A stretch of 52,406 bases of DNA from an uncultured candidate division WWE3 bacterium (lineage in GTDB: Bacteria; Patescibacteriota; WWE3; UBA101185; UBA10185), in assembly GCA_903879985.1 (NCBI GenBank), contig CAIRNR010000007.1, positions 531,519 to 583,924 of the forward strand, written 5' to 3'. This document shows, one piece after another, positions 12,419-32,855 of this stretch. The notes beneath the pieces were generated by a model, which did not search any database, was not told where the DNA came from, and worked only from the letters and a program-made list of their open reading frames with translations. Position 1 is the first letter of the stretch, and each line of letters begins with the position of its first letter. The position numbers were made by a program, and so were the translations under genes.

Positions 12419-14728
12419 ATGAACAAATCAAAAACATTTCCAGCATTTTCACCAATCGTACTTTTGATACTAATAATATTGTTTCATTTGGCCCTCAACT
12501 CTATATGGCAGGACGTCAATAAAGCTCCACCAACATGGGATAGTGCAGGTCATTTAACTACAGCCTATATATTTGCTCACAAGATTCCTGAACTCTTTAC
12601 AGGCCGCATGACTCTTGAAAACTTCTATAAGGTTTCCACTTACTATCCACCACTTGTTCAAATGTTAGGCGGTGCAACTTTTATGCTTTTTGGGTTCGAT
12701 TACCAATGGGCGTTTTTGCTTGAAACATTGTTTCTTATACTCGCCATTATTTATCTCTATAAAATTGTTCTTCATTATTTTAAAGATGCAAATTTAGCTG
12801 TTTTAACGGTTTTTATATTTTCTTTTTTTCCGCAAGTATGGCAGCAGAGTAGAGAGTTTCACCTAGATGTTCCGCTAGTGGCGTTGTTGTTAGTTTCTTA
12901 TTACTACCTAATACTTTCCAATTCTTTGAGAAATGTTAAATACGCTGTTCTGTTTTTTATTTTCTTTACGTTGGGTCAGTTAACTAAATGGTATGGTTTT
13001 GTATTTTTAGTTGTTCCATTTATTTACGAGGTAATTGTCAAAATGATTCAGGCACGTGATTTTGATAATAAAGAGCGTATTCGAAATACACTAATAGGTT
13101 CGGTGATTGTGATCGCTGGAGCCTTTCCTTGGTATATATTGAATTTCACCAATTTGGTAAACATTGTGGGAATAACAGCGCAAGGTGATGCAGGTGATCC
13201 AACTAATATTTGGAGTTTAGAAAGTATTTTCCATTATTTGGAAATGATGATGTCGCACCAACTCACTTTTGTTGCTGTTTTAATGCTTCTCGGCGCGATG
13301 TATTTGTTTAACAAACACAAAGTTCCTTGCAGAAATTACGTTTTCCATTTAATCGCATTTCCTTATGTTGTTTTCACATTGATTCAGAATAAAGATCTTA
13401 GATACATTTTGCCTTTAACTCCAATGTTTGCATTTTATATTGCCTATGCCTTGCTGAAAATAAACTTTATGGCGAATAAAGTTGTGTTGGCAATATTTTC
13501 TGTTTATTTAATGATGATGTTCTTCTTTTTGTCGTTTAACCAGCTAAGTCCGCTTCCGGTTTGGTTGCAGCCGATAACAGTTACGATGGCCGGACCTTAT
13601 TACACGGCATGGTTGGCGGATCCTTTAAATTATTCTTACAATTCACACGATTGGCAAAATGATACGGTTTTACAGGCAATAGAAAATGACACCAACAGAT
13701 TTGGTACTAAACCTGCAAACCCCTACAAAGTTTTATCTCTTTCAGAGAATCAGTTTTTTTCTGTGGCTTCGCTTGAGATGCACCGTTGGAAAAATGAAGA
13801 TTTTAACATTGATATCGTAACGCCTTTTTATCAACTAAGCCCTTTTAATACAGAAGCGCAACAAAATTATTTGGATCAAATGGAGTACGCGGTTGTTCCG
13901 GATAGTCCAGGTCCCGCTGGTTTGCGCAATTACGCTGTTTTAACACAACTAATCAATTTCTTTAAGTCTGACCAAAACAAAGACTTTGTTGTTATAAATA
14001 AAGTTACATTGCCAGACACCAACGTTATTTCTTTATACAAAAGAGTTAGTTCTTCTGCAGTAAACACACCAAACCTACGGGAAGATAGTTTAAAGATTAG
14101 TATAGGTAATGTTCTCTTTTTGGACCGTGAAAAAACGCAAGGTTTGCCGTTTAATGTTTATTTGTACGACGCTGACGGCAAGGAATCCATTGTGGATGTT
14201 TCCGGTGGTGGCGCTCAGCGTAGAATCCCACTTGATGGTTACTCTAAAGTTCGTATTGATCTGCCTGTAAACCAGCAAAATGTACTGGAGATGCGCGGTT
14301 GGGACTTTTTCACCTTTTTAAATGGCACGTTTGTTCGTGATGCTTCGTACGCTACTGTAGTAACGGACTCGGGTAATGAGTTTATTTATGATGGTTTAAA
14401 CATTACGCCACGTTCAAAGTATCCAAATGATGTTGCATATAAACCCAATATTATTGTTACCTATGCTGACGATGGCATAAAGTTGTCCCTGGCCGCTGAA
14501 GATACTGCAGAAAAAGTATATGTAGCGTACGCTTCTATCGGTTGGCAATGGAACACATTGTGGCTTGATCAAAACCAACGCGAGGTAACTATACCTACAA
14601 CAGGTTTATTACAACTTGAAATTACCCAACGAAGCCAATTGATTGTAGGATTTCCAACCACTTGGGGTTTCTTTAAGTGCTATGACGGGCGCGCGGTTTG
14701 TTTTTATCCGTCGGCCGCTAACTTATGA
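12419..14728 (+). CDS. polytopic membrane glycosyltransferase-like protein (GT39/GT83, ArnT/PMT-like) with a large C-terminal extracytoplasmic domain, 769 aa
   Basis: About 12 predicted TM helices in the first ~400 aa, with an early periplasmic-loop motif PPTWDSAGHL, then a ~350-aa soluble domain. The family call comes from architecture and is not verified. Confidence 0.6.
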   Translation: MNKSKTFPAFSPIVLLILIILFHLALNSIWQDVNKAPPTWDSAGHLTTAYIFAHKIPELFTGRMTLENFYKVSTYYPPLVQMLGGATFMLFGFDYQWAFLLETLFLILAIIYLYKIVLHYFKDANLAVLTVFIFSFFPQVWQQSREFHLDVPLVALLLVSYYYLILSNSLRNVKYAVLFFIFFTLGQLTKWYGFVFLVVPFIYEVIVKMIQARDFDNKERIRNTLIGSVIVIAGAFPWYILNFTNLVNIVGITAQGDAGDPTNIWSLESIFHYLEMMMSHQLTFVAVLMLLGAMYLFNKHKVPCRNYVFHLIAFPYVVFTLIQNKDLRYILPLTPMFAFYIAYALLKINFMANKVVLAIFSVYLMMMFFFLSFNQLSPLPVWLQPITVTMAGPYYTAWLADPLNYSYNSHDWQNDTVLQAIENDTNRFGTKPANPYKVLSLSENQFFSVASLEMHRWKNEDFNIDIVTPFYQLSPFNTEAQQNYLDQMEYAVVPDSPGPAGLRNYAVLTQLINFFKSDQNKDFVVINKVTLPDTNVISLYKRVSSSAVNTPNLREDSLKISIGNVLFLDREKTQGLPFNVYLYDADGKESIVDVSGGGAQRRIPLDGYSKVRIDLPVNQQNVLEMRGWDFFTFLNGTFVRDASYATVVTDSGNEFIYDGLNITPRSKYPNDVAYKPNIIVTYADDGIKLSLAAEDTAEKVYVAYASIGWQWNTLWLDQNQREVTIPTTGLLQLEITQRSQLIVGFPTTWGFFKCYDGRAVCFYPSAANL

Positions 14729-17700
14729 TGCTAAAAAAGTTCTTTCAATTTATTGGATCTAATATTCCTGTAGTTGTGTTAATTTGTATTTCCTTAGTGG
14801 TTTGTTACGTTAATTACACTCCAAATACATTTTTAACAGGTTGGGATACTTTGCATCCTGAGTTTAATTTTTCGGAATATTGGTGGCGAATAATAGATGG
14901 CGTTTGGCAAGAACACCAAGGTTTAGGTGCCGTGGCATCGCAGGCACACGCTTCGGAAATTCCACGAATAATCATATTAGAGTTATTAAGTCTGGTTTTT
15001 AAGTTAAATCAGTTGCGCTATTCTTACGCATTCTTAATGTTGGTTCTTGGACCTATTGGTGTTTACTACTTTATACAACAATTGGCATTACGTCGTTGCA
15101 CCGGTTGGGCACGCAATCTTGGAGGTTTTGCCGGTGGATTAATTTATCTCCTTAATCTTGGCACCATGCAGCAGTTTTACGTTCCTCTGGAAATGTTTTT
15201 AACTCATTACGGGCTTTTAGGTTGGAACCTCTTGTTTTTGGCTAAATTCTTTGAAACAGGTAAGCGCAAACATTTATTTTTATATTTGCTCGTTGCCTTT
15301 TTTATATTATCTCAGGCACATACTGCGACCCTTTTTTACGCCTATTTCCTAGGTTTAAATGTATTTTTATTTATTTTGGGACTTGTTAGTTGGTCAACCA
15401 AAGAGCTTGGTTTTAAAACCGTTGCGCAACGTTACGCGCAGTTAATCTTTCTCACTTTAATGCTGAATTCATTTTGGTTTTTACCCAACGTTTATTTCAC
15501 ATTAGTCCACGGTAAAGAAGTAAGTGATGCAAAAATAACATTTCTTTTTTCAGAAGAAGCATTTTTAGCAAACAAACGTTATGGAGATATAAAAGACATC
15601 GCAATAATAAAAGGTTATTTGTTTAGTTGGGGAGAACATGTTGGTAATGGGCACTTTGGTGATTTGTTAAATGAATGGGAACTGCACTTAAAAGATAAGA
15701 ATGTTTTAATTTTCGGTTATGCCTTTTTCTTTATGTCACTTTTTGGTTTGATAATAGCTTTTTGGCGTAGAGAAAAATATGCATATCCAGTGGCGTGCGT
15801 TTTGTTTATGGCAATGTTCTTTTTAATGAGTGATAATCCACCATTTGGTTTTGTGTTTGTATTTCTGCAAAACAGTGTGCCTATGTTTAAGGAAGCACTT
15901 AGATTTCCATTTACTAAGTTTTCTGTTTTATACATGTTTTCTTTTTCGGTGTTTTTCGGTTATTTCTATGGATTCTTTGGCGAGCTACTTGCCAAACTTC
16001 TCAAAAAAGAAGGTTATATTCTTTTAACTCACTTTATTGTTTATGTGTTTGTTGTTATAACGCTTTGTGACTTTATGTCTCCAGTGTTTCGAGGTTACAT
16101 GATAAGTCCCTCGATGCGCGTAAACATTCCCGATAGATATTTTGAGATGTTTAAATACTTTAATTCTCAAAATGATTACGGCCGTGTAGCGCACTTTCCG
16201 GTGCATTCTTTTTGGGGTTGGGTATATTACAATTGGGATTCGTCTACAAAGCTTGGTTATCAAGGTGCAGGCTTTTTATGGTTTGGTATAAAGCAGCCAC
16301 TTCTCGATAGGGAATTCGATCGTTGGAATTTGTTAAACGAACAATATTATAACGAGGTTGCCTACGCGGTTTATTCACAAGATCCCGTAATGTTGAAAAA
16401 TGTTTTTGATAAGTATAAAGTTCGTTGGGTATTGCTAGACGAAAGTGAGCAAGTAATTGATGATAATCCAAAGCAACTTTTTTATCCTGAGATAGAAGCA
16501 TTGTTAAGCAAAACCCAAGGTTTTGTTTTGGAAAAAGATTTCGGTAATGGTTTAAAGGTTTATAAAGATCTAAGTGCCACATACGCTAACGAAGAAACTA
16601 GCAACACTTACTACGAAGCCGGAAATTCTTATTACAAAGAAAATCTTGATCCAATATATTCGTTGTATAAACCTTATGTAGCAACTAACAACGTGGTTTT
16701 CCCGTTCATTGGCTTAACTAATACAGATGGTTCACTTAACAACGCATATGTAAGTTCTACAGATACTGCTATAACTCTTAAATCCCACGAAGCTACTCCT
16801 GTACAAGGAACTACTACTGCTGATAGCGGTGTATTAAGTGTTTATGCAACCAAAACTGACTCCGGTGTTGATATAAGTATTGAAAGTAAATATAAGCCGG
16901 GTAATGTTGTTAAAACTTACAGTGTTCCTGTTACACCAGATACACAAAAAGGAATTATCGTAGAACTAGAAAACCAGCGAATGTTTGTTGATGTAACCGC
17001 TTTAACCGATAAAGCTTATGTAGACGACGTTTATGTTCCTTTAAATATAGATATAGCAGTTAATATATATTTACCAACAGAAACTTTGCCTGTAACAGCG
17101 TCATCTAATTTGGAAGCGTGCAGTGATACCGGGAAAGGCGCGGCGTATTCTATTGAAACTTCGGATAACGGTTTAACGCTTACAGGGAGAAATGTAAAAG
17201 CTTGTGCCACTCTCAAACTTAATGAAATAGTTCCTGATGTAACTAATGAAGTTCTTAGAATATCTTATCAACCTTCGGATAATGCCTCGGATATTTGTGT
17301 ATTAGATGATTCGTTGGGTTTGTGTGTAAATCAGTTCCTTGCCGATAAAACCAGTTTGGTAAAGATTAATAATAATGTTAATTTATTAAATCTTAGATTC
17401 TATTCCAATGCTTCTGGCTTTTTAATTGATAAAAGTGTTTCATACAACAATATTCAAATAGAGAAGTATGCTTTAAATTCTTCCGACACATTAAATTTGG
17501 ATAAAAGCTTTGGTGAAGTTTCACTGCCTAGTGAAGTAACTTTAAATAAGACAATTGTTTACGATCCAAGTAAGTTGATGGCGGAGGCTGATCCTTATAA
17601 TTGTGCTACCGGTTCTTTTGATTTTGAGGTTTCCTCTGTGCAAAGAGATATAACAGGTATTACGTATACGGCAAAGAAGCAATCTGTTTGTGATTCGTAC

Positions 17701-18279
17701 CCATTTCCAACGCTAAGTCATAGCCTTGGCTATATTTTGGAGGTTAAGACCAAGAATATTGTAGGCGTTCCGCTTAGATTTTGTTTAACTAATGAGCTTT
17801 ACAAAAAATGTGATGTCTATGTTTCGGTTCCGCAAAGCCACGAAATGAAATCATATTTTTATTTTGTACCAACAAGCGGTGCAGGAATGGGTTATACACT
17901 TAATCTTTCAAATTTAACTTTTGGTAATGACCCAGGGGAAAATGAATTAGGTTATATCGCAATATCCCCGGTAGACGACAAATTACTTAAAAGTACGCAT
18001 GTAAATGTGCTGGTAAGTTCAAATTCCACATTGCTTATGTACAATCAGGCCTATGAGAAAGGTTGGACAGCCCTATGTGGCTTTGGGATTTGTTCAGCGG
18101 AGCATGTAAAAGTGGATAACTGGACCAATGGTTGGATATTCAAAAGTCCTATAGATTTGAGCACGGTAAAAATCGTGTTTTTGCCACAAGCCCTTGAATA
18201 TTTCGGTTTTATCCTTGTACCTCTAGCAGTCGTTTTTGGGCTGATTTTCACCAAATTTAAGAACAAACCTAAACACTAA
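14725..18279 (+). CDS. very large membrane protein, 1184 aa, with a GT-C-like polytopic N-terminal half (YfhO/AftD-like), a large outside domain and a C-terminal TM anchor
   Basis: ATGA overlap with the upstream gene. Many TM helices up to ~aa 470, a Ser/Thr/Asn-rich beta-like region, and a final TM YFGFILVPLAVVFGLIF. The function call is tentative. Confidence 0.55.
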   Translation: MMLKKFFQFIGSNIPVVVLICISLVVCYVNYTPNTFLTGWDTLHPEFNFSEYWWRIIDGVWQEHQGLGAVASQAHASEIPRIIILELLSLVFKLNQLRYSYAFLMLVLGPIGVYYFIQQLALRRCTGWARNLGGFAGGLIYLLNLGTMQQFYVPLEMFLTHYGLLGWNLLFLAKFFETGKRKHLFLYLLVAFFILSQAHTATLFYAYFLGLNVFLFILGLVSWSTKELGFKTVAQRYAQLIFLTLMLNSFWFLPNVYFTLVHGKEVSDAKITFLFSEEAFLANKRYGDIKDIAIIKGYLFSWGEHVGNGHFGDLLNEWELHLKDKNVLIFGYAFFFMSLFGLIIAFWRREKYAYPVACVLFMAMFFLMSDNPPFGFVFVFLQNSVPMFKEALRFPFTKFSVLYMFSFSVFFGYFYGFFGELLAKLLKKEGYILLTHFIVYVFVVITLCDFMSPVFRGYMISPSMRVNIPDRYFEMFKYFNSQNDYGRVAHFPVHSFWGWVYYNWDSSTKLGYQGAGFLWFGIKQPLLDREFDRWNLLNEQYYNEVAYAVYSQDPVMLKNVFDKYKVRWVLLDESEQVIDDNPKQLFYPEIEALLSKTQGFVLEKDFGNGLKVYKDLSATYANEETSNTYYEAGNSYYKENLDPIYSLYKPYVATNNVVFPFIGLTNTDGSLNNAYVSSTDTAITLKSHEATPVQGTTTADSGVLSVYATKTDSGVDISIESKYKPGNVVKTYSVPVTPDTQKGIIVELENQRMFVDVTALTDKAYVDDVYVPLNIDIAVNIYLPTETLPVTASSNLEACSDTGKGAAYSIETSDNGLTLTGRNVKACATLKLNEIVPDVTNEVLRISYQPSDNASDICVLDDSLGLCVNQFLADKTSLVKINNNVNLLNLRFYSNASGFLIDKSVSYNNIQIEKYALNSSDTLNLDKSFGEVSLPSEVTLNKTIVYDPSKLMAEADPYNCATGSFDFEVSSVQRDITGITYTAKKQSVCDSYPFPTLSHSLGYILEVKTKNIVGVPLRFCLTNELYKKCDVYVSVPQSHEMKSYFYFVPTSGAGMGYTLNLSNLTFGNDPGENELGYIAISPVDDKLLKSTHVNVLVSSNSTLLMYNQAYEKGWTALCGFGICSAEHVKVDNWTNGWIFKSPIDLSTVKIVFLPQALEYFGFILVPLAVVFGLIFTKFKNKPKH

Positions 18280-18455: not shown

Positions 18456-19091
18456 ATGAAAAAAACTATTTTATACAACTTAATAGCTGTTATGTTCTTT
18501 GTTGTTGCTGCAGTTGCTTTAAAGACTACTGTCTACGCTGATAACTGTGAATCTAACTATGGAGGTGGAGAAACCTGCTTAGTTAACAAAAGATTCAAGA
18601 TTGAAAAATCTGTAAAAGTTGAAGGCGACGACAACTGGAAAGATAAAGTAACTTTAGATAAAGGCGATAAAGATAAAACAATATTATTCAAAGTTAAAAT
18701 CACAAACATGAGTGATAATACCGGTGATGTAACTTTCGATAACATGAAGATGGAAGACTTTTTACCTAAAGAATTACATAAAGTAGGTGGCGATGGTTTA
18801 ACCGAGGAATGGGATAACTTCAAACCTGGTCAAACTAAGACCTTCGAAATTGAAGCTAAAATCGACTCTGATGAATTTGACCGTAAAGAAAGCTTTGAGA
18901 AATGTGTTGTTAACAAAGCTGAAGTAAGATGGGAAGGCGAATTTGAAGGTGCCGATACAGCTACTGTATGTTTCGGTCATGATAAGAGTGGTCCTAAAGA
19001 ATTACCAAAAACCGGTGGTTTCCCAATCGAAGCTGCTACAGGATTTGGTTTAGTATCTGTCGGATTAGTCTTAAAGAAATTTAAACGTTAA
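18456..19091 (+). CDS. secreted cell-wall-anchored surface protein with an LPXTG-type sorting signal, 211 aa
   Basis: Signal peptide MKKTILYNLIAVMFFVVAAVALKTTVYA. C-terminal LPKTG, a hydrophobic stretch and a KKFKR tail. The core is DUF11/CARDB-like (KVKITNMSDNTGDVTFDN). Two Cys pairs. Confidence 0.85.
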   Translation: MKKTILYNLIAVMFFVVAAVALKTTVYADNCESNYGGGETCLVNKRFKIEKSVKVEGDDNWKDKVTLDKGDKDKTILFKVKITNMSDNTGDVTFDNMKMEDFLPKELHKVGGDGLTEEWDNFKPGQTKTFEIEAKIDSDEFDRKESFEKCVVNKAEVRWEGEFEGADTATVCFGHDKSGPKELPKTGGFPIEAATGFGLVSVGLVLKKFKR

Positions 19092-19189: not shown

Positions 19190-19843
19190 ATGTTTTCACT
19201 TTTTAAATCTCCAAAATCACATTTTATTATCTATGTACCCGTACTTTTAATAGTTGTGGACGGTTTTATATTTTCAGTAATTTCAATCCGCAATTTAAAT
19301 AAAAAGCCTGTGGAAATTAAAGTGGAGCAGGTTGTTTCAAGTCCAACTGAGTCTCCTTTTGCAAAAAAACTTTTGCCAATATATTCAGATCCTACATCTT
19401 TAGTAATTGAAAATACAAATATAAAAGCTGTATTTATTCCATTAGGTTTAGATTTAAATGGTGCGTTAGAAACTCCAAAGGATTGGAGCGTAATTGGTTG
19501 GTATAGTGAAAGTGCAAAACCAGGTGAGCAAGGAAATATTATTATCGATGGTCATTATGATGATAGCCGTGGGCGTCCCGCTGCATTTTGGCAGTTGAAA
19601 AATGTAAAAGTAGGTGATAAAGTGTCAGTTAAGGATACCTTTGGAAAGGTGTATAACTATAAGGTGACAGATACTTTCTTTATAAGTATTAACGATCCCA
19701 AGCGCTTAGAGATTTTCGATAGTCCCACCGACGGTACTGCTATTATGACTTTGATTACTTGCGGTGGAGTTTGGATTCCCGGTAAGTCAACTTATGCTGA
19801 ACGATTGGTAGTAAAGGCTGAACTTATCAATACTAACAATTGA
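19190..19843 (+). CDS. sortase family transpeptidase
   Basis: N-terminal TM, catalytic His context IIIDGHYD, the TLxTC motif MTLITCGG, and a downstream Arg (ERLVVKA). Confidence 0.85.
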   Translation: MFSLFKSPKSHFIIYVPVLLIVVDGFIFSVISIRNLNKKPVEIKVEQVVSSPTESPFAKKLLPIYSDPTSLVIENTNIKAVFIPLGLDLNGALETPKDWSVIGWYSESAKPGEQGNIIIDGHYDDSRGRPAAFWQLKNVKVGDKVSVKDTFGKVYNYKVTDTFFISINDPKRLEIFDSPTDGTAIMTLITCGGVWIPGKSTYAERLVVKAELINTNN

Positions 19844-19958
19844 TGAGACTTAAAGCTGGGAGGTGGCCCAGGGGCAGTGGCTATCTCCCGACTTTAGGTG
19901 GCGCAATTAAACCTATCCATCTACACATGTACATAATTTCAGAATTAACAAAATAAAT

Positions 19959-21506
19959 ATGCCAGTAAAAAAACAAATAACTGAAGATAGTTCTAATAAA
20001 GTTAAGAGCGTAACAAAAGACGCTGAAAAGGTAGTTGATAAGGTAGTCGCGCCAGTCGTAACTGCACCAACTGTTACCGCACAAGTACAGCCAGAGCAGC
20101 CTGTTGTAGAGCCTGTGGTTGCCCCGGTTGAGGTTCCTGTTAATAATAACGTTGTTAACGCGCAAGTAGCTAAAGCTTCGTCAGCAACCCCTCCAATGCG
20201 CTCACAGTCGTCACAACGTTCAACATCTTCCTATCAAAACAATAGAAGACCTTACCAAAATAACAATTCGTATCAGAACAATAACTCTTACCAGAATAAT
20301 AATTCATACCAAAATAAAGATTCCTATCAGAACAATACAAATTCTTATCAAAACAATAGTTCGTACGAAAATTACGAGCCGGTTGTAACAGGTGATGCAA
20401 TTACCATAACGGGAATGCTTGAAATATTAACTGATTACGGTGTTATAAGACAAAAAGAAAAAGTTGAGTCCGATTTACCAAGAGATGTTTACATAAGTAA
20501 TTCTCAAATAAAAAGATTTAACCTCAGAAAAGGTGATGCTATAAAAGGATTAGCTAGACCTCCAAAGGAAGGCGAAAGATATTTATCATTACTTAAAATA
20601 GAAACAGTCGAAGGAATGGATCCAGAGAAGGCCCGCAAAAGACCTAGATTTTCTGAACTTACTCCAATTTTCCCAACTGAATGGATGAAACTCGAAACTA
20701 CATCTTCTGTTATTTCCACAAGACTTATGGATTTGGTAGCACCAATTGGAAAAGGCCAAAGAGCCATGATTGTTGCTCCTCCAAAAGCTGGTAAAACATT
20801 TTTACTTTTAGATATTGCCAACGGTATTACTGAAAACTTTAAAGATTCCGTTTTACTTGTTGCATTAATTGGAGAAAGACCAGAAGAGGTCACTCAGTTT
20901 ACAAGAAGTGTTAAAGGTGAAGTTTATTCCAGTAACTTTGACGATATGGCCGAGGAACAAACTCGTGTTTCAGAACTTTGCTTAGAGCGTGCTAAACGTT
21001 TAGCCGAGCAAGGAAAAGATGTTGTTATATTAATGGACTCAATCACACGATTAGCCCGTGCTTATAATATGGTAGCTCCTCCATCAGGTAGAACTTTAAC
21101 AGGTGGTTTTGACCCAGCAGCTTTATACCCAACCAAACACTTTTTTGGTGCAGCCAGAAACTTAGAAGAAGGTGGAAGTTTAACGATCATAGCCACTGCA
21201 TTAGTTGATACCGGTTCAAGAATGGATGACGTAATCTTTGAAGAGTTCAAGGGAACAGGTAACATGGAACTTCGTTTGGATCGTACATTGGCCGAAAGAA
21301 GAATATTCCCATCAATAGACATAAAAGCCAGTAGCACACGTCATGAGGAAGTTTTGTTTGGTGAAAAAACACTTGAACAAATTTATCGCTTAAGACGTAT
21401 GGTCGACTTATTAGACGATCGTGATGCAACAGAGCTTGTTATTGAAAGACTCAAGAAATCAAAGAGCAATGCTGAGTTCTTGGAAAACTTACATAAAGCC
21501 CAGTAA
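19959..21506 (+). CDS. rho: transcription termination factor Rho with a ~140-aa low-complexity N-terminal extension
   Basis: Rho core: GMLEILTDYGVIR (CSD-like RNA-binding domain), Walker A APPKAGKT, and LIGERPEEV. The N-terminus carries a Val/Pro-rich tract followed by eight Tyr-centred S-Y-Q-N-N-type units. Confidence 0.93.
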   Translation: MPVKKQITEDSSNKVKSVTKDAEKVVDKVVAPVVTAPTVTAQVQPEQPVVEPVVAPVEVPVNNNVVNAQVAKASSATPPMRSQSSQRSTSSYQNNRRPYQNNNSYQNNNSYQNNNSYQNKDSYQNNTNSYQNNSSYENYEPVVTGDAITITGMLEILTDYGVIRQKEKVESDLPRDVYISNSQIKRFNLRKGDAIKGLARPPKEGERYLSLLKIETVEGMDPEKARKRPRFSELTPIFPTEWMKLETTSSVISTRLMDLVAPIGKGQRAMIVAPPKAGKTFLLLDIANGITENFKDSVLLVALIGERPEEVTQFTRSVKGEVYSSNFDDMAEEQTRVSELCLERAKRLAEQGKDVVILMDSITRLARAYNMVAPPSGRTLTGGFDPAALYPTKHFFGAARNLEEGGSLTIIATALVDTGSRMDDVIFEEFKGTGNMELRLDRTLAERRIFPSIDIKASSTRHEEVLFGEKTLEQIYRLRRMVDLLDDRDATELVIERLKKSKSNAEFLENLHKAQ

Positions 21507-21569: not shown

Positions 21570-22772
21570 ATGGCATTTACCATTAAAAGTCCTACCTCAA
21601 AGCGATTTTTTCAATTGAGTTTTGAAGGTTTCCGGCCAAAAGGTAGGAATAAGTTTGAACAGTTTATTAATACGTGGCTGGAGTTTTTCCGGTCTATTTT
21701 TGGATATATTCTATTAAAAATAGGAGATTTTCTATCGTTTGTCGGAAATTGTGTCATTTTTATTGTTAGATTACCAAACACAATCAAGGTATTTTTGATT
21801 CGAAAGCTTATTTGGTCTCGCGGCAGACTTGGAAGACCTATAGCTACAGGTATCGTTATGGGCGCGGCTTTTAGTGTGTTTTTGTTAGGGGAAGTTTTTG
21901 TAAACTCCGGTTTTGTTGTTAATCCTCCTATTAATCCGGATTACCTCGTCACAACTTCTGATATTATTCCAAGAAAAGAGCTGGCAGTCACGACTTTGCC
22001 CGAAATGCGCCAACGTACTGAACCTTTGGCTTACAACGTTGAAGTAGGAGATACTTTATATTCTATTGGTAGTAAGTTTAAAGTTTCTGTTGACGCTTTA
22101 AAGTATGTAAACAATCTAACTGATTATTCGGTGCTTAGAGTGGGGCAAACGTTGTCAGTACCACCTGTAGCGGGTTTAATTCATAAAGTTGAATCTGGGG
22201 ATACACTAAACTCTATCGCTGCAAAATACGACATTCCTGCGCAGGCTATTGCGGATTTTAACTATATACTGGATACTACGCACTTGAAGCTTGGAGCAGA
22301 GTTGGTTATTCCAGGTGGAAAAGTTCCTAAGGTTGTTGTACCTGCGATCATTAATGAGGGTGCCCCTTCCGTAGGGAGACCTTCAACGGTGACTGCAAAC
22401 AAGAGCTTTTGTACGTGGCCAACAACGGTTAGGATCATTACACAGAACTTTTCTTGGTACCACAATGGTATTGATATAGCTACACCACACGGAATTGGCA
22501 TGCCTCCACTAATGGCATGTACCGGTGGAACTGTTATCAGAGCAGGTTGGGATCCATGGGGTTTGGGATTACATGTTAGAATAGACCACGGAAATGGCTA
22601 TGTAACTATATATGGTCATATGAGTCGTCTTGATGTAAGCTATGGGCAGAAGGTTGGCCGAGGCGAAATCCTTGGATTGATGGGTAGTACAGGAAATTCT
22701 ACAGGTCCACATGTACACTTTATGGTTGAGTACAATGGTGTACCTCAGAATCCGTTGGATTTTGCTCAGTAA
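21570..22772 (+). CDS. membrane-anchored LysM-domain M23 family metallopeptidase
   Basis: Two LysM repeats (YNVEVGDTLYSIGSKF..., HKVESGDTLNSIAAKY...). M23 motifs HNGIDIA, GHMS and GSTGNSTGPHVHF. Confidence 0.88.
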   Translation: MAFTIKSPTSKRFFQLSFEGFRPKGRNKFEQFINTWLEFFRSIFGYILLKIGDFLSFVGNCVIFIVRLPNTIKVFLIRKLIWSRGRLGRPIATGIVMGAAFSVFLLGEVFVNSGFVVNPPINPDYLVTTSDIIPRKELAVTTLPEMRQRTEPLAYNVEVGDTLYSIGSKFKVSVDALKYVNNLTDYSVLRVGQTLSVPPVAGLIHKVESGDTLNSIAAKYDIPAQAIADFNYILDTTHLKLGAELVIPGGKVPKVVVPAIINEGAPSVGRPSTVTANKSFCTWPTTVRIITQNFSWYHNGIDIATPHGIGMPPLMACTGGTVIRAGWDPWGLGLHVRIDHGNGYVTIYGHMSRLDVSYGQKVGRGEILGLMGSTGNSTGPHVHFMVEYNGVPQNPLDFAQ

Positions 22773-22783
22773 GGTCTCAGATT

Positions 22784-23968
22784 ATGATTGATATTGCACA
22801 AATAAAAGTTAGAGCTGGTAACGGAGGCGATGGAAACGTCTCGTTTAGGCGCGAAAAGTTTATACCCCGCGGAGGTCCCGATGGAGGCGATGGAGGTGAT
22901 GGTGGAAGTGTTTTCTTTGTATCTTCTACTAACCTTGTGACTCTTAGAGACTTTAGACAAAAAGATCTATTTAAAGCTGAAGATGGTGGTCATGGCGGTA
23001 AAAAGAAAATGTTTGGAGCTAACGGCAAGGATTTATACATCGCCGTTCCTGTTGGAACATTGGTTTACGAAACACGAAATGGAACTGAAGTTTTGATTGG
23101 CGATATGTTTGAAGATGGTCAAAAGCTTATGATTGCTCAAGGTGGTCGTGGCGGAAAAGGTAACTTTAAATTTAGAAGTTCAACAAATCAAACACCTATT
23201 CAATTTGTTCCGGGCGTACGTGGTGAAGAAAAGATTATACGTTTAGAAATCAAACTTGTTGCCGATATTGGCTTAATTGGTGCACCAAACGCAGGTAAAA
23301 GTACTTTAATCAATCGTGTTACAAACGCTAACGCTAAAGTTGCAAACTATCCATTCACAACACTAGAACCAAACCTTGGTATTTTAACCTTTAGAGAAGG
23401 CGACACAGTCATCTTGTCTGATATTCCAGGCATAGTTGAAGGTGCTGCCGAAGGTAAAGGTTTAGGTGACGAATTTTTAAGACACGTTGAACGCACACGC
23501 TTTTTACTTCACCTAATTGATCCATTGAGTTTTGTTGACCAAACAATGCCTGATAATCTTGATGCAAAGGTTTTAACTACCAATGCTGTTAATAACTACA
23601 AAATGATACGTGAAGAATTAGTTAAATATGGCCATGGTTTAAGTGAAAAGCCCGAAATAATAGTTGTTAATAAGATTGATATTACTGAGGTTGCTTTGGC
23701 ATTGGAAGATATAAAGAAGGGGCTTAAAAAGGCAGCTGGACTTAAAAAAGGCGTTGAAATCTGTGGTATATCTGCAGTATCCGGAGAAGGGTTGCCCAAA
23801 CTTATGCAGACTATTGAAAAGCTTTTACTCGAAAATCCTAAAAAAGTTGTGTTTGAAACAGTTAAGCCTACAAAGATTTATACACTCGAGAACTTACCAA
23901 ATAAACGTATGGTTTTTGGAGATGGTGGCCAGGGGTCAGTTCAAAACGATACTACAAAAAGGATTTAG
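22784..23968 (+). CDS. obg: GTPase ObgE/CgtA
   Basis: Gly-rich Obg fold (AGNGGDGNVSFRREKF..GGPDGGDGGDGGSV). G1 is GAPNAGKST, G3 is DIPG, G4 is NKID. Confidence 0.93.
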   Translation: MIDIAQIKVRAGNGGDGNVSFRREKFIPRGGPDGGDGGDGGSVFFVSSTNLVTLRDFRQKDLFKAEDGGHGGKKKMFGANGKDLYIAVPVGTLVYETRNGTEVLIGDMFEDGQKLMIAQGGRGGKGNFKFRSSTNQTPIQFVPGVRGEEKIIRLEIKLVADIGLIGAPNAGKSTLINRVTNANAKVANYPFTTLEPNLGILTFREGDTVILSDIPGIVEGAAEGKGLGDEFLRHVERTRFLLHLIDPLSFVDQTMPDNLDAKVLTTNAVNNYKMIREELVKYGHGLSEKPEIIVVNKIDITEVALALEDIKKGLKKAAGLKKGVEICGISAVSGEGLPKLMQTIEKLLLENPKKVVFETVKPTKIYTLENLPNKRMVFGDGGQGSVQNDTTKRI

Positions 23969-27436: not shown

Positions 27437-28324
27437 ATGCCTGCAACAAATTCAATAGAAGACACGTTTGTAGCTATCACCGATGATACTTATCCTAAAC
27501 TTTTGAAGGAAATTCCAAATCCACCTAAACTTTTATATTACAAAGGTAACTATAATAGTATGAATTTCGAAAATTGTTTAGGAATTGTGGGAAGTAGAAA
27601 AATGACTGAGTATGGTCGTGAGGTAATTAAGTATGTTTTGCAAACTCTAACTCATAGAAAAATTACTGTGGTTTCGGGCTTCACTTTTGGGGTAGACGCG
27701 TGTGTACACAGAACATGTTTGGAATTAGATATACCTACTATAGGGGTTTTTCCGGGCGGTTTGGATATTTGCCCCCACAGTAGCCTGTGCGATGTGTATG
27801 AACAATTAGTATACTCTGGCGGATTGGCGGTTTCGGAATTTGCTTGTGGTTTTCAACCACGGATTTGGAGTTTTCCTCGAAGAAATCGTATAGTTGCAGG
27901 CCTTTGTAAGGCACTATTGGTTGTAGAAGCAGCAAAAGACAGTGGCTCTTTAATTACATCCGGTTTTTCTCGTAAATTCGGACGAAAAGTGTTCGCAGTG
28001 CCTGGAAATATCTTTAGTGACACCTCTGTCGGCTGTAACGAGATATTGTCTACTTATGCGCAAGCAATGTACTCGAATATTACGATAAATCGCTTTTTTG
28101 AAATTTCGGGTGGTTTGGAAAAGTCAAAAGATACTTCTAAAAAAGTACGGGATCCCATTGAAAATAAAATTGTAAAATTACTTAGAGCCAGCCGCATGCC
28201 AATAGATGACATTTCTAAAATACTTGAATATGACATTGTGACTACTTCAAAATTACTAACGCTACTTACATTAAACGGAGAAATTACGGAAGAAGGAGGT
28301 TACTATTATGCTAGTAATCATTGA
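27437..28324 (+). CDS. dprA: DNA processing protein DprA (Smf)
   Basis: Rossmann-like DprA core GIVGSRKMTEYGR...VVSGFTFGVDACVHR...RNRIVAGL, plus a C-terminal winged-helix-like tail. Confidence 0.88.
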   Translation: MPATNSIEDTFVAITDDTYPKLLKEIPNPPKLLYYKGNYNSMNFENCLGIVGSRKMTEYGREVIKYVLQTLTHRKITVVSGFTFGVDACVHRTCLELDIPTIGVFPGGLDICPHSSLCDVYEQLVYSGGLAVSEFACGFQPRIWSFPRRNRIVAGLCKALLVVEAAKDSGSLITSGFSRKFGRKVFAVPGNIFSDTSVGCNEILSTYAQAMYSNITINRFFEISGGLEKSKDTSKKVRDPIENKIVKLLRASRMPIDDISKILEYDIVTTSKLLTLLTLNGEITEEGGYYYASNH

Positions 28325-29846
28325 TTCCGTGGCATTTGTTGGGCTTGATGTTGTAAAGGTACACGTTGAGGTAAATGTTTCTACCAGAGGACTTCCTAGT
28401 TTTGATATTGTTGGTCTGCCTGATAAGTCCGTAGGGGAAAGTAAGCATCGTATAAAGGCGGCTTTTCAAAATTCTAAATTAGATTTTCCCAATAAACGCA
28501 TAACTGTGAACTTGGCTCCTGCGGATATTCATAAAGAAGGTTCTTTCTATGATTTTCCTATTGCCGCAGGAATACTTTGTGCGTGTAAGGGTTTGCAACC
28601 TCCGGATAACAGCCTTTTTTTCGGTGAACTTTCCTTAAATGGTTCGTTAAATTCCACTCGTGGCGCATTTCTTTTATCTTTGTTCGCAAAAGAGAATAAT
28701 ATTAGCTGCATATTTTTACCTTCTAAGAATTGTCAGGAGGCGTGTTCTGTAGCAGACGTAAGAATATTCGGGATCGATTCAATAAATGCATTGGCGAGTC
28801 ATTTAGAGGGTCGGTTTAAAGTTGAACCTTATATAAAAAATCAAATTTCAGTAAACATCCAAAATTCTGTGCAGAATCAACCCACAGACTTTAAAGATAT
28901 TCTTGGCCAAGAATTTGCAAAGCGTGCTCTTCAGATTTGTGCGACAGGTGGGCATAATATATTACTATGCGGTCCTCCGGGGGCAGGAAAAAGTCTACTA
29001 GCCAATGCACTTATGTCTATAATGCCTCCACTTTCGGCAGATGAAAGTGTTGAAGTGACAAAAATATATTCATTGTTAGGATCTACTGCTAAAAGCAATT
29101 ATCTTATAACTGACAGGCCTTTTAGAAATCCCCATCACACAACATCTTATGGGGGTATGCTTGGTGGTGGTAATAGGTTATTGCCCGGTGAAATAACTTT
29201 GGCGCATAGAGGAATTCTTTTTTTAGACGAGTTGCTGGAATTCAATAAAAACGTACTAGAGGCTTTAAGAACGCCACTTGAGACAGGAAATATTACGCTA
29301 ATTCGCTGTAGAGGCAGCATAACTTTTCCTGCAAGTTTTATGCTTGTTGCGGCGTGCAATCCCTGTCCTTGTGGTTTTTACGGTGCGTTTAATAAAAAAT
29401 GCGTCTGTAGTTTAAGTCAGGTGCAAAATTATCAGCGTAGACTTTCAGGACCATTATTAGATAGAATTGACCTGTATGTAAACGTAAAGCCCGTTGAGCA
29501 GCAGAGGTTACTTGAGTTTGCTAACAACAATGAAAAGAATTCTGATTGTTATAAACAGCAAGTTATGTCTGCCAGAAATGTGCAAGAAAAACGATTTCAA
29601 GATTTATCCTTTAAAACTAATTCTCAAATGAAGGGAAAAGATGTTGCACAGTGGTGTAAACTTAGTAATTCTGTACAAGGTCTAATGAAAATGGCAGTTA
29701 TGCACTTTGGACTTTCTGCGCGAGGATATTTTAAAGTGATAAAAGTTGCTAGAACAATAGCCGACTTAGACTGTAAGGACGCCATTCTCGAAGAACACGT
29801 AGCCGAAGCGTTGCAGTACAGAATCAAAACACTTGAATTGAAATAA
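28308..29846 (+). CDS. comM: ComM/YifB Mg-chelatase-like AAA+ ATPase
   Basis: N-terminal Lon-like domain (ITVNLAPADIHKEGSFYDFPIA), Walker A GPPGAGKS, Walker B ILFLDEL, and a Cys-rich insert CNPCPCG. It overlaps dprA by 17 nt and is preceded by AGGAGG. Confidence 0.9.
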   Translation: MLVIIDSVAFVGLDVVKVHVEVNVSTRGLPSFDIVGLPDKSVGESKHRIKAAFQNSKLDFPNKRITVNLAPADIHKEGSFYDFPIAAGILCACKGLQPPDNSLFFGELSLNGSLNSTRGAFLLSLFAKENNISCIFLPSKNCQEACSVADVRIFGIDSINALASHLEGRFKVEPYIKNQISVNIQNSVQNQPTDFKDILGQEFAKRALQICATGGHNILLCGPPGAGKSLLANALMSIMPPLSADESVEVTKIYSLLGSTAKSNYLITDRPFRNPHHTTSYGGMLGGGNRLLPGEITLAHRGILFLDELLEFNKNVLEALRTPLETGNITLIRCRGSITFPASFMLVAACNPCPCGFYGAFNKKCVCSLSQVQNYQRRLSGPLLDRIDLYVNVKPVEQQRLLEFANNNEKNSDCYKQQVMSARNVQEKRFQDLSFKTNSQMKGKDVAQWCKLSNSVQGLMKMAVMHFGLSARGYFKVIKVARTIADLDCKDAILEEHVAEALQYRIKTLELK

Positions 29847-29849
29847 TAA

Positions 29850-30167
29850 ATGTTGTATAGTCCAAACGTTATGATGCTAGAGAAAGTTTCCAAAGCTTTA
29901 TCCGATAAAAATAGATTAAAAATTATCCAGTTCTTGAGTTCTGGTCAGAAAAATGTCAGTGAAGTTGCTGATAGATTAAATGTTGAAGAAAACTTAGCCT
30001 CGCATCATCTTAGAGTTTTAGCATCACTTGGTTTTTTGAAGAATGATAAAAAAGGAAGAGAAGTATTCTACAAAATAAACGAGACAAAACTTATCGCTTT
30101 AATAAAAGATATAAGTAAAAATGCTGTTTTCAAGGATTTGTTACTTAAGGCTATGGAAGAAGAATAA
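29850..30167 (+). CDS. ArsR/SmtB family winged-helix transcriptional regulator
   Basis: LSDKNRLKIIQFLSSGQKNVSEVADRLNVEENLASHHLRVLASLGFL is the classic ArsR HTH pattern. The gene starts 3 nt after the comM stop. Confidence 0.85.
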   Translation: MLYSPNVMMLEKVSKALSDKNRLKIIQFLSSGQKNVSEVADRLNVEENLASHHLRVLASLGFLKNDKKGREVFYKINETKLIALIKDISKNAVFKDLLLKAMEEE

Positions 30168-30347
30168 TATTGGTAGTGTATTTTTTTTAGCTTCTTGTTT
30201 GCGTTTATTGTGCGGTAATTAAATATACAATGTTGTTTAAGCAACAAATAGTGGTTGAATTCTTGCGGTAATTGTTGCCAATACGTTTTCTACTTTACAT
30301 AGATAAATTTCCCTAGAAAAAAGTTGAAATAACAAATATAAGTAACT

Positions 30348-31031
30348 GTGCTTATTTTTCAGTCGGAAGAATTTAAAGAACTTCTCTTAAAAAACTTAGT
30401 GTACATCTTAGCCGCTTGCTTGGTTCTTGGCGGGGGACTTGGATTTATATTGACTAAGCAGTATTTAAACACAAATTGTAATCTTTCATTACCAACAAAA
30501 ACAGCCGAGGAACCTGTTAAAAATATTAAAATAGATTTATCCGGTGCTGTTAAAAAACCGGGTGTTTATGAAGTACAAAGTAATTCCAGAGTAGGCGATG
30601 TAATTATTTTAGGCGGCGGTTTTACAAGTGATGCCAGTTCAGAGTGGGTATCGAAAAATATTAATCTGTCTAAAACATTGGTTGATTCAGCAAAAATATA
30701 TATTCCTTTTGAATGGGAGATTTTTGAGAACTTTACATATGAATTAATTCCTTTAATAGGTGACAAAGTTTTACAATCCAGTTCGAGTTCTACAACCCAG
30801 GCCACTAATAGTGCAAATACTTCTGGTACAACAACTAATAATGATTCTGTTATCACGGTAAATGTAAACACTGCCAGTCTAAGTGATTTGGACGCACTTT
30901 CAGGAATAGGGCCTGCATATGCACAAAAAATAATTGATAACAGACCTTACTCAAATTTCGACGAATTCAAAACTAATTCCAAAATACCCCAGACTACTGC
31001 AGATAATTTAAAAGATAAAATATCTTTTTGA
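30348..31031 (+). CDS. comEA: ComEA DNA receptor (TM anchor, SLBB-like domain, helix-hairpin-helix)
   Basis: GTG start and an N-terminal TM. C-terminal HhH motif VNVNTASLSDLDALSGIGPAYAQKIIDNRPY. Confidence 0.85.
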   Translation: MLIFQSEEFKELLLKNLVYILAACLVLGGGLGFILTKQYLNTNCNLSLPTKTAEEPVKNIKIDLSGAVKKPGVYEVQSNSRVGDVIILGGGFTSDASSEWVSKNINLSKTLVDSAKIYIPFEWEIFENFTYELIPLIGDKVLQSSSSSTTQATNSANTSGTTTNNDSVITVNVNTASLSDLDALSGIGPAYAQKIIDNRPYSNFDEFKTNSKIPQTTADNLKDKISF

Positions 31032-31032
31032 C

Positions 31033-32034
31033 ATGAAATATTATGGTTTTTTAATTTTACTTAGCTTGCTGGCCTTTTATAGAATTTATACTTTCTGTGG
31101 CCTAAGTGCTAGCCATAGTGTATGTCTAGAACCTCAGTATTCAAGCAAAGAACCCGATATTTTTACAGGTATTCGTGAGCGTTTTAAAAATATTGTTGAG
31201 GAATCTTTGCCAAGCCCTTCCAGCGAACTTTTGTTGGGAATGACAATTGGTATGGATGAACTTGCGCAGTTACCTCTATTTAAGCAAGCATTGAAAACCA
31301 CAGGTACCATTCATGTAGTTGTTGTTTCCGGATTTAATATAAGTTTGGTTTTTGGCATGGTTACAGGACTTTTGGGTTCTAAATATAAGCTGAAAAACCT
31401 GCTTATTGCTCAAGTTGTCACATTGTTTTATGCGCTACTTAGCGGATTCAATCCTCCCGTGATACGTGCATGGATAATGGGTTCTACGGCGGCTTGGGGT
31501 AAGTACTATGGCCGTATGATCGACGGATTACGTCTACTATTTTTTAGTGGTTTGGTTATGGTTATAATTAGTCCTCTTCAGTTGTTCAGTCTAAGTTTTC
31601 AGTTGAGTTTTTTGGCGACACTCAGCCTAATTTTGTACGGGGGATTTTTTTCAAAGATATTTCCTCGTTTTTCAGACTTAGCGTCTACGTTGTCTGCGCA
31701 GGTTCTAGTTTGGCCCTTGATTTCATATAGCTTTGGTACGGTAAGTTTGATCAGTCCTTTAGTTAACATGCTAATTCTTTGGACTGTGCCTATTAGCACG
31801 GTCTTTGGTGGTATTTTACTTTTGGCAGGATTAATCAATATTTGGTTGAGTAGGTTAGTAGGTATTTTTTTATTCCCGTTTTTGGATTTTTTTGCCCAAA
31901 TAGTTATTTATTTTTCTCGATTAGATTTTTCTTTGGTTAACTTTGAAATCAGTCTAAGGTTTTTAGCTGTTTACTACGTAGTGATGCTATTACTTGGGTT
32001 TAAATTTGAGAAATTTTTTAGCGCACATAAATGA
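31033..32034 (+). CDS. comEC: ComEC/Rec2 competence-channel membrane domain (N-terminal part of a split ComEC)
   Basis: Polytopic protein with the competence-domain pattern (TGTIHVVVVSGFNISLV...). It ends in an ATGA overlap with the next ORF. Confidence 0.8.
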   Translation: MKYYGFLILLSLLAFYRIYTFCGLSASHSVCLEPQYSSKEPDIFTGIRERFKNIVEESLPSPSSELLLGMTIGMDELAQLPLFKQALKTTGTIHVVVVSGFNISLVFGMVTGLLGSKYKLKNLLIAQVVTLFYALLSGFNPPVIRAWIMGSTAAWGKYYGRMIDGLRLLFFSGLVMVIISPLQLFSLSFQLSFLATLSLILYGGFFSKIFPRFSDLASTLSAQVLVWPLISYSFGTVSLISPLVNMLILWTVPISTVFGGILLLAGLINIWLSRLVGIFLFPFLDFFAQIVIYFSRLDFSLVNFEISLRFLAVYYVVMLLLGFKFEKFFSAHK

Positions 32035-32855
32035 CCAAGTTCAGATTTTTAGCTTTTATAGTTTGTTACTATTTGATGCGGTTTATATTGCAAGGTGGTA
32101 CTTCTAACGGACGTGATTATTTTATAGACTTTCTTAATGTAGGGCAGGGGGATGCACTTTTAGTTAGGACGCCGCACAATAAAGTATTAATAGACGCCGG
32201 TCCGGATAATTCGCTTAGTTATGAATTATCAAATTATTTTTGGAATCCTTTTTGTAGTTTTGATTTTGGTTTTGTCACGCATGCTCATGCGGATCACTAC
32301 TACGGATTTACCAGAATTGCCAAACTATGTCAGCCAAAATTGATTACGTTTAACGACGTTGACCAACTCCAAACTAGCTCGCAGGTATTTAACCAATTAC
32401 TGCAGGAAAATAAAATTAATAAAACTTTTTTAGGCGACGAATATTTTTTTGATGGTGTAAGGATAAAAATTTTGTATCCAAGAAGTCCACAAGATTTAAA
32501 TTTGCATCATAATGATTTGAATTTTAACTCTGTTGTGATGTTGCTGGAATATGGGGATTTTGAAGCATTGCTTTTAGGCGACGCTCAAAAAGAGACTTTA
32601 GCTACAATAAATTGGGATGATATCAAGTCGCAAATCAAGCTACCATTGGAGGTTATAAAGGTAGCGCATCACGGGGCAATCAACGGGTTCTACTTGCCAA
32701 TGTATGACACACTTAAGCCCCTTTATTGTGTAATTTCGGTAGGGAAGGACAATACTTTTGGGCACCCAAACCCTGATGTGGTGCAACAGCTGGAGAGTAG
32801 TGGTTGTACAGTGTTACGTACGGATGTTAAGGGAACCATTGAGATGAAGCTCTAG
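32031..32855 (+). CDS. comEC: ComEC C-terminal metallo-beta-lactamase domain encoded as a separate ORF
   Basis: One TM, then DFLNVGQGDALLV, HAHADHYYG and VAHHG, the MBL motifs of the ComEC nuclease domain. Confidence 0.8.
   Translation: MTKFRFLAFIVCYYLMRFILQGGTSNGRDYFIDFLNVGQGDALLVRTPHNKVLIDAGPDNSLSYELSNYFWNPFCSFDFGFVTHAHADHYYGFTRIAKLCQPKLITFNDVDQLQTSSQVFNQLLQENKINKTFLGDEYFFDGVRIKILYPRSPQDLNLHHNDLNFNSVVMLLEYGDFEALLLGDAQKETLATINWDDIKSQIKLPLEVIKVAHHGAINGFYLPMYDTLKPLYCVISVGKDNTFGHPNPDVVQQLESSGCTVLRTDVKGTIEMKL

Follow-up and report, generated by a model that had tools for sequence, protein, structure and literature searches.

The rho gene of an uncultured candidate division WWE3 bacterium raises the question of what a transcription termination factor gains from about fifty residues of regularly repeated Tyr-Gln-Asn in front of its RNA-binding domain. 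The gene lies at nt 19959..21506 on the forward strand of the 52,406 nucleotides that were analysed (assembly GCA_903879985.1, contig CAIRNR010000007.1, positions 531,519 to 583,924), here called the window, and encodes a protein of 515 amino acids (aa). This protein scores above the curated NCBIfam equivalog cut-offs for Rho (557.5 against 315 for NF006886 and 548.3 against 509.45 for TIGR00767) and has the 'Type 2d' architecture, i.e. without the N-terminal helix bundle. The original prediction took the repeat for a prion-like domain that had replaced this bundle and would make termination heritably switchable. We consider a sticker-and-spacer tail, which would tune RNA capture or self-association, more likely than a proven prion switch.

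The array consists of (S/P)YQNN(N) hexapeptides (residues 91-141, nt 20229..20381, forward strand), contains 9 Tyr, 18 Asn, 7 Gln and 8 Ser, and is prion-like in composition. Residues 91-139 (nt 20229-20375) are SYQNNRRPYQNNNSYQNNNSYQNNNSYQNKDSYQNNTNSYQNNSSYENY, in which seven (S/P)YQN units are followed by YEN and YEP, so that the seven YQN and one YEN units originally described were read exactly so. The tyrosines are at positions 92, 99, 105, 111, 117, 123, 130, 136 and 139, mostly 6-7 residues apart. The context had been described as Asn/Gln/Tyr/Ser-only, which applies to 42 of these 49 residues but not to the other seven (two Arg and one each of Pro, Lys, Asp, Thr and Glu). None of 200,000 shuffles of the segment contained seven or more YQN, and only two of 200,000 had tyrosines spaced as evenly. 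Tandem Repeats Finder reported a period of 18 with 6.6 copies and 67% matches.

At the DNA level the units are written with mixed synonymous codons, as had been noticed before: TAT and TAC are used four and five times, CAA and CAG four and three times, AAC and AAT six and twelve times, and serine is encoded by TCC, TCG, TCT, TCA and AGT. Among the seven aligned hexapeptide units the pairwise differences were 9.5%, 11.1% and 61.9% at codon positions 1, 2 and 3, respectively; raw codon-position differences were used, since the Nei-Gojobori pS exceeded 1 at these two-fold degenerate sites. The mean DNA identity of the units was 72.5% and the longest exact repeated word was 14 nt. With synonymous sites approximately randomised while the peptide was held, little substrate would be left for replication slippage, and the approximately six-fold excess of third-position differences points to long-standing purifying selection on the array peptide. 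Judged from this codon pattern the array is under protein-level selection, which agrees with the earlier claim that its periodicity was maintained by selection on the protein and not by recent slippage. The 1-kb region was identical, without gaps, in four independent metagenome assemblies from two studies (freshwater, 2017, and lake water, 2020), and the exact 515-aa Rho was called on at least 20 contigs, on which grounds an assembly artefact was rejected; the comparison was made between contigs, and rare length variants of the array may exist within populations.

We further found that the helix bundle is missing from this Rho, as predicted. The Rho_N domain (PF07498) gave no match at E<=0.01 on the whole protein, and when residues 1-157 and two homologous N-termini were searched at E<=10 there was still no match. 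The same Pfam model served as its own positive control, as it detected Rho_N above the cut-off in the nearest outgroup Rho proteins, with 44.3 bits in a Dojkabacteria metagenome-assembled genome (L003) and 32.4 bits in locus L031. Similarly, there were no precomputed Rho_N matches among the 120 nearest homologues, which are the best 120 protein matches and together with the window Rho make up the clade set of 121 used below. AlphaFold2, run with a 60-sequence alignment, gave a confident core but a predicted local distance difference test (pLDDT) score of only 37-48 and no secondary structure from residue 1 to approximately 143; the first strand was placed at residues 148-156 and no helix was predicted before residue 148. 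A hidden helix bundle was ruled out by the Pfam search at E<=10 on the three N-termini together with this helix-free model. As Rho_N is absent, the protein is an atypical Rho and not of the classical three-domain type. The '2d' class was defined by Moreira 2024 as Rho in which an N-terminal domain is not detectable and the RNA-binding domain is preceded by more than 25 additional aa (PMC11347177), and here an extra region of 143 aa precedes the RNA-binding and ATPase domains.

Four segments can be recognised between the start codon and the RNA-binding domain, all of them predicted to be disordered. Residues 1-30 (nt 19959..20048) comprise a basic tip, MPVKKQ, followed by a K/D/E/V-rich stretch with 7 Lys and 5 Asp or Glu and a net charge of +2. 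The Val/Pro-rich tract that had been reported ahead of the repeat was found as an acidic spacer at residues 31-62 (nt 20049..20144; 11 Val and 7 Pro in 32 residues, pLDDT below 50), and it is not conserved in the nearest relative. A linker rich in Ser, Ala, Gln, Asn and Arg (residues 63-90, nt 20145..20228, net charge +3) then leads into the array. All these segments are on the forward strand, as is the junction (V)VTGDAITITG, which forms the first strand into the OB fold (residues 142-152, nt 20382..20414) and aligns with E. coli Rho residues 45-53. The canonical sequence had been thought to begin only at GMLEIL, around residue 154. It does begin after the repeat, but the alignment to solved Rho structures starts already at residue 144 (GDAITITGMLEIL), which corresponds to E. 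coli residue 45.

From there onwards the protein is a conventional Rho. The OB-fold primary RNA-binding domain (Pfam Rho_RNA_bind PF07497, residues 151-223, nt 20409..20627, forward strand) was detected at 6.8e-23 and the RecA-type ATPase/translocase domain (Pfam ATP-synt_ab PF00006, residues 255-459, nt 20721..21335, forward strand) at 1.2e-29, and the WWE3-type Rho is 53% identical to residues 45-419 of E. coli Rho. The residue comparison with E. coli Rho agrees with the structure alignment. In the primary RNA-binding site L58, R66, D78, Y80, E108 and Y110 are identical, while F62 is replaced by Tyr and F64 by Val. The ATPase domain has kept the Q and R loops, the Walker A motif PPKAGKT, the Walker B motif, E211/R212 (E306/R307 in the WWE3 protein), D360 and the arginine finger R366 (R461), with K283 and K326 both replaced by Arg. 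By these alignments the Rho motor and the OB-fold RNA-binding site are canonical.

The relatives show which part of the tail is shared. Where named, the best 120 matches belong to 'candidate division WWE3' or the 'Patescibacteria group'. The start motif M-x-x-[KR]-[KRN] was present in 104 of the 121 clade members, with MP[IV]K[KR] as its clade-wide peptide form, and as it was kept although the DNA has diverged, it fixes the start codon at 19959. Ahead of the OB fold the clade shares the junction motif Y(Y)[ST]G[DE]xIxI[SK]G. The tails between these two motifs are 8-191 aa long (median 79) and are rich in S, N, K, P, G, T, Q and Y. The closest relatives, approximately 190 and all of them WWE3-type Patescibacteria, have a layout in common in which a basic tip is separated by a variable spacer from a polar, Tyr-rich tract adjoining the OB fold. 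Aromatic residues made up 12.3% of the last 30 tail residues against 1.9% of the rest (Wilcoxon p ~1e-18), and Q, N, G and S together 45% against 28%. The Tyr tract itself comes in several variants, such as GYGNGYGNGYG, YSYSGS, NYNNYNN and YQNNYQNGYQQN. On the evidence of the conserved start and junction peptides, the N-terminal tail is translated.

The nearest relative (P0001) is syntenic and has a core identity of 93.8%, with 47.6% of the third codon positions differing. Its tail is 86 aa long and has only about three Tyr units (PY--RRTYQNN--SYDNGYEP), and 28 of the 68 alignable tail residues are identical to those of the window Rho. From this relative it follows that the regular YQN array is lineage-specific and the Tyr tract clade-wide. 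The survey of related Rho N-termini that had been proposed with the original prediction accordingly gave a mixed outcome, with a Tyr-rich tail throughout the clade but sporadic Q/N-richness. Conserved in the clade is the polar, Tyr-rich sequence adjoining the OB fold and not Q/N-richness.

The prion-like composition was positive, although by a small margin. The best 80-residue window of the protein (residues 59-138) contained 32 Q/N, where the Michelitsch and Weissman criterion is reportedly at least 30 Q/N per 80 residues. Against the proteome of the DNA window itself this corresponds to a binomial P of ~2e-14, and the runner-up among its 35 open reading frames (ORFs) had 19 Q/N per 80, leaving Rho as the sole Q/N-rich protein. 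A general AT bias as the source of the Asn richness was rejected on the GC content of 38% and on the other ORFs, none of which exceeded 19. A re-implementation of PAPA gave 0.060 at window 105 against a threshold of 0.05, with a FoldIndex of -0.41; the margin is small and the propensities were not taken from the official script. In the same implementation the controls Sup35 and E. coli Rho scored 0.10 and -0.16. A positive PLAAC score would be expected, as N, Q, Y and S dominate the segment. The array segment is also predicted to be intrinsically disordered, with pLDDT values of 37-48 over residues 1-140 and the negative FoldIndex. The value of 0.060 was the top PAPA score among the 121 clade members; of the other 120, three reached the PAPA threshold and three the Q/N criterion. 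The composition of the array can be described as borderline positive for a prion type, as predicted from its letters, with a sporadic distribution in the clade.

The explanation that we rank first, and to which we give an even chance, is that of a sticker-and-spacer prion-like tail which both helps to capture RNA and lets Rho self-associate in a tunable manner, a function inferred from position and pattern. According to this model the clade ancestor would have lost the helix bundle and a disordered tail would have taken over its place, and in the source lineage the Tyr tract may have expanded into the regular (S)YQNN(N) array. With 9 Tyr per subunit set in Asn/Gln/Ser spacers, 54 tyrosines would be displayed on the crown of the hexamer, the site of first RNA capture. 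The aromatic residues of the array and the basic residues could help to capture RNA in the stead of the lost bundle; the basic tip and aromatic tract are plausible replacements because they are placed where RNA meets Rho, and the lost bundle aids RNA loading. The array would in addition give Rho a weak multivalent self-association, leading to condensation that may possibly mature to amyloid, and such self-association would tune termination with concentration or conditions. The dual role was ranked first since the even Tyr spacing is a sticker-and-spacer pattern and since there is a precedent in the Rho of Bacteroides thetaiotaomicron (BtRho). In BtRho a charged subdomain and a 68-aa N/Q-rich domain beside the RNA-binding site govern RNA-dependent condensation, which has been shown in vitro and in vivo and raises termination activity (Krypotou et al. 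2023, 2026, PMC13269538). The N/Q-rich domain of BtRho modulates this condensation rather than acting as a prion (PMC13269538).

The two proteins have in common a charged Lys/Glu-type stretch followed by an N/Q-rich domain that abuts the primary RNA-binding site, as well as a composition that is kept while length and sequence are poorly conserved. However, BtRho carries a 309-aa insertion behind an intact bundle, contains a KE-rich driver of 176 aa and a conserved BCD block and depends on ppGpp, whereas the WWE3 Rho has a 143-aa tail, no bundle and a charged part of about 30 aa. Several points weigh against a dual role. The charged N-terminal stretch is 30 aa in comparison to the 176-aa KE-rich driver of condensation in BtRho, and the Q/N-rich block is short (approximately 50 residues) and passes the thresholds narrowly, in the case of PAPA with parameters from outside the official script. 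Furthermore, the absence of the array in P0001 implies that Rho of this clade can perform its basic function without it, and the part given to RNA capture by the tail is pure inference. RNA capture, self-association and any effect of the tail on termination are suggestions.

Behind the dual role we rank pure RNA capture, then a heritable prion, then neutral expansion and last a wrong start codon. If the tail acted in RNA capture only, the basic tip and the Tyr tract would steer RNA to the primary site, with Tyr stacking on the bases and Lys/Arg contacting the backbone, and no higher-order assembly would form. This would agree with a basic start and a Tyr tract abutting the OB fold that are conserved in the clade whatever the Q/N content, and it has parallels in other Rho proteins: the bundle is positively charged and aids RNA access to the primary site, E. 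coli Rho no longer binds RNA once the first 27 residues of the bundle are removed, and the insertion in Bacteroides fragilis Rho raises RNA affinity (PMC11347177). However, the strictly periodic N-rich array is left unexplained, as relatives manage with 2-5 tyrosines, and some of the clade tails have only 8-40 residues. We regard this explanation as possible but rather doubtful.

A true prion, as originally predicted, would require the YQN array to convert to a self-propagating amyloid which inactivates Rho and thereby causes heritable, reversible, genome-wide read-through. The array hexapeptide resembles both the zipper peptide GNNQQNY and the Tyr-periodic repeats of Sup35, and this was counted in favour of a prion together with the disordered N-rich composition, the 32 Q/N in 80 residues and the re-implemented PAPA score of ~0.060. 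A disaggregase was reportedly found by Yuan and colleagues in 2014 to be required for prion propagation in yeast and E. coli, and the window encodes a 765-aa two-ring ATPase of the Hsp100/Clp type (4480-6777, forward strand; AAA_2, ClpB_D2-small and AAA_lid_9). However, the latter scores far below all curated ClpB, ClpA, ClpV and ClpG cut-offs. The scores of the array are marginal as well, its Q/N block has only ~50 aa, and the prion-like character is sporadic (3/120) and was not kept in P0001. Evenly spaced aromatics are moreover said to favour liquid condensates over aggregates, a finding attributed to Martin and colleagues in 2020, which we counted against a prion.

Two other Rho proteins point in opposite directions. 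The array is located directly before the OB fold, as is the prion-forming domain of Clostridium botulinum Rho (Cb-Rho; Pallares et al. 2016, PMC4703818), the core of which is made up of N/S runs and contains two Phe (NNNNSNFNNNSNNNSSFNNSN). For Cb-Rho amyloid formation and heritable read-through have been proven experimentally (Yuan and Hochschild 2017, as cited in PMC11347177 and PMC6400439), whereas the WWE3 array is known from sequence alone. Both have a disordered Asn-rich region of ~50-80 residues directly N-terminal to the OB fold, are PAPA-positive and occur sporadically among relatives. Unlike the WWE3 protein, Cb-Rho has kept its helix bundle, carries the domain as an insertion after it and has no periodic Tyr hexapeptide. 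B. fragilis Rho, on the other side, has a QN motif and did not aggregate (PMC11347177). Taken together a true prion seems improbable to us. A long shot of similar kind is that the array functions as a prion domain, or as an amyloid or condensate domain that can be switched, and flips Rho between active and inactive heritable states, with a conserved RNA hairpin upstream of rho feeding back onto rho expression; if true, an ultra-small Patescibacterium with few regulators would control read-through epigenetically across its genome.

Neutral expansion assumes slippage-type growth of a tolerated low-complexity linker with little or no function, in which the prion-like composition would be incidental. 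The spacer is indeed fast-evolving, since the tail has diverged from that of P0001 to the extent given above in spite of ~94% core identity, tail length varies from 8 to 191 aa and P0001 has no array. Against this explanation stand the third-position differences, which are about six-fold above those at the first and second positions, the identity of the array in samples taken years apart and the clade-wide Tyr enrichment beside the OB fold, and we judge it very unlikely. A mis-called start codon, with translation from Met153 (GMLEIL) or Met80 and a repeat that is not made, would fit with the missing Shine-Dalgarno sequence before the ATG at 19959 and with the NCBIfam 'short form' Rho model, which aligns from residue 150, but it can practically be dismissed, since 27 of the 35 ORFs in the window have no Shine-Dalgarno sequence, which makes its lack uninformative, since Met153 is no general start as this residue is Leu, Val or Ile in most relatives, and since both starts were rejected on the conserved MP[IV]KK start and Y(Y)xG[DE]xIxI junction peptides, on the 429 nt that stayed free of in-frame stops in only 2 of 20,000 shuffles, and on the codon-position pattern of the repeat, which shows selection in the rho reading frame.

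Disordered or prion-like additions to Rho are already known from many phyla and two have been tested experimentally, so the sticker-and-spacer tail opens no new category. Evenly spaced Tyr in Q/N/G/S spacers are also found in the N domain of Sup35 (eRF3), with its repeats PQGGYQQYN, and in FUS/hnRNPA1-type domains, which can phase-separate and form amyloid, and in Sup35, which is a termination factor too, this domain likewise precedes the working domain. These are unrelated eukaryotic proteins with longer repeats and domains of more than 100 residues, and the likeness is mechanistic and not by descent. Within Rho, Harrison 2019 described prion-like domains in at least eight phyla, sporadic and often with another disordered composition at the same position in relatives, a pattern read there as equally compatible with a non-prion role of the disordered region (PMC6400439). 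The sporadic prion-like character among WWE3 Rho tails follows this pattern. For '2d' regions Moreira 2024 predicted disorder, droplet formation and prion-like character by PLAAC in ~14% of 25-residue windows (PMC11347177). The WWE3 protein shares its architecture by definition, and the predicted disorder, with 'Type 2d' Rho such as that of Microbacterium oleivorans; in contrast, the survey describes neither the plan of MPIKK tip and Tyr tract nor a YQN hexapeptide array, and neither Patescibacteria nor candidate phyla are named anywhere in its text, which covers 2730 genomes (PMC11347177). A literature search found no papers treating Patescibacteria together with Rho. New is the extension of the pattern to Patescibacteria, and that a whole clade has swapped the helix bundle for a tail with a grammar of its own, in which a basic tip comes first and a Tyr tract adjoins the OB fold. 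Since Rho bounds most bacterial transcription units, a tail that alters the solubility of Rho or its RNA capture would change expression genome-wide. With its ~50 residues, the unusually clean periodic array would also be convenient natural material for telling apart RNA capture, condensation and amyloid formation in Rho.

Additionally, a conserved RNA hairpin was found in the sortase-rho spacer (19848..19899, forward strand), with an 8-bp stem P1, one closing pair, a 10-bp stem P2 and a 12-nt loop containing GGGGCAGUG. Besides the window it is present at loci L083, L085-L087, L001, L002, L031 and L088-L167. The exact 19-mer of the hairpin matched 84 metagenome contigs, and a WWE3-type rho was the next gene in 64 of the 66 loci with enough downstream sequence. 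The inner stem (GGGAGGUAGC/GCUAUCUCCC) is nearly invariant, the loop GGGGCAGUG is invariant and the outer 8-bp stem covaries; in loci found with the 19-mer its invariance is a matter of ascertainment, and L001, L002 and L031 were found independently. At L001 the hairpin is essentially unchanged, and at L002 and L031 the GGGGCAGU loop is kept while the P2 stems carry compensated changes. In comparison to P0001 the window hairpin shows 2 changes in ~62 nt, both between G-U and G-C, whereas the neighbouring coding DNA is scrambled, and it is kept also at loci whose Rho is only 64-82% identical. Among 44 distinct hairpin sequences 93.5% of the cells were paired against at most 56% with slid partners, double changes occurred at eight pairs, and the observed covariation was reached by none of 500 shuffles. 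The G-U pairs and the covariance-model scores (69 against 24 bits) place the hairpin on the rho strand.

No Rfam family matched the hairpin, with only two sub-threshold chance matches. A repeated element was rejected as the hairpin is single-copy in the window, an intrinsic terminator as there is no U-tract, and a 6-codon leader peptide from the GUG in the loop as its stop codon is not conserved. The hairpin follows the stop codon of the sortase gene at a median distance of 12 nt, and 19-221 nt separate it from the start codon of rho. In one WWE3 subclade (L092, L094, L095, L100, L101, L105, L125, L132 and L143), and not in the window, a conserved promoter-like TTGAT(G/A)-17-TATTAT is found ~15 nt 3' of the hairpin. 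This site matches in 9-10 of 12 positions and would leave a rho 5' leader of ~120-135 nt, which suggests that in the genomes of that subclade the rho promoter probably lies 3' of the hairpin. As the promoter-like site is directly 3' of it, the hairpin may serve to terminate or insulate the transcript coming from upstream, and not belong to the rho leader. Candidate roles are those of a rho leader, an insulator or a processing element, and this rho-linked hairpin may represent a new regulatory motif for the gene. At L031 (JAJTYH010000003.1) a weaker hairpin of 23.5 bits was observed at 2207-2275, before a rho at 2351 whose product retains Rho_N. With a hairpin before a bundle-bearing Rho, the RNA element either predates the bundle loss or has a wider distribution than it.

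The rest of the window is an ordinary piece of bacterial chromosome, with the end of a 23S rRNA, a 5S rRNA and four tRNAs. All genes around rho are on the forward strand: a hypothetical 211-aa protein (18456-19091) that directly precedes the sortase in the conserved gene order, the sortase itself (19190-19843) 5' of rho, a LysM/M23 peptidase (21570-22772) 3' of rho and then an Obg GTPase (22784-23968). This order, from the 211-aa protein to Obg, was kept at the WWE3-type loci that were compared. At its C-terminus the 211-aa protein has an LPxTG-like sequence, LPKTGG, and a membrane anchor, and because of these it is probably a sortase substrate. Two long ORFs, of 1184 aa (14725-18279, forward strand) and 639 aa (1032-2951, reverse strand), gave no Pfam match at E<=1e-5; the former is located upstream of the sortase cluster in relatives too. 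Finally, a competence/DNA-uptake cluster was observed at 27437-32855 on the forward strand, encoding DprA (DNA_processg_A), a Mg-chelatase/ComM-like ATPase, a ComEA-like protein (SLBB and HHH_3), ComEC (Competence) and a protein with a metallo-beta-lactamase fold.

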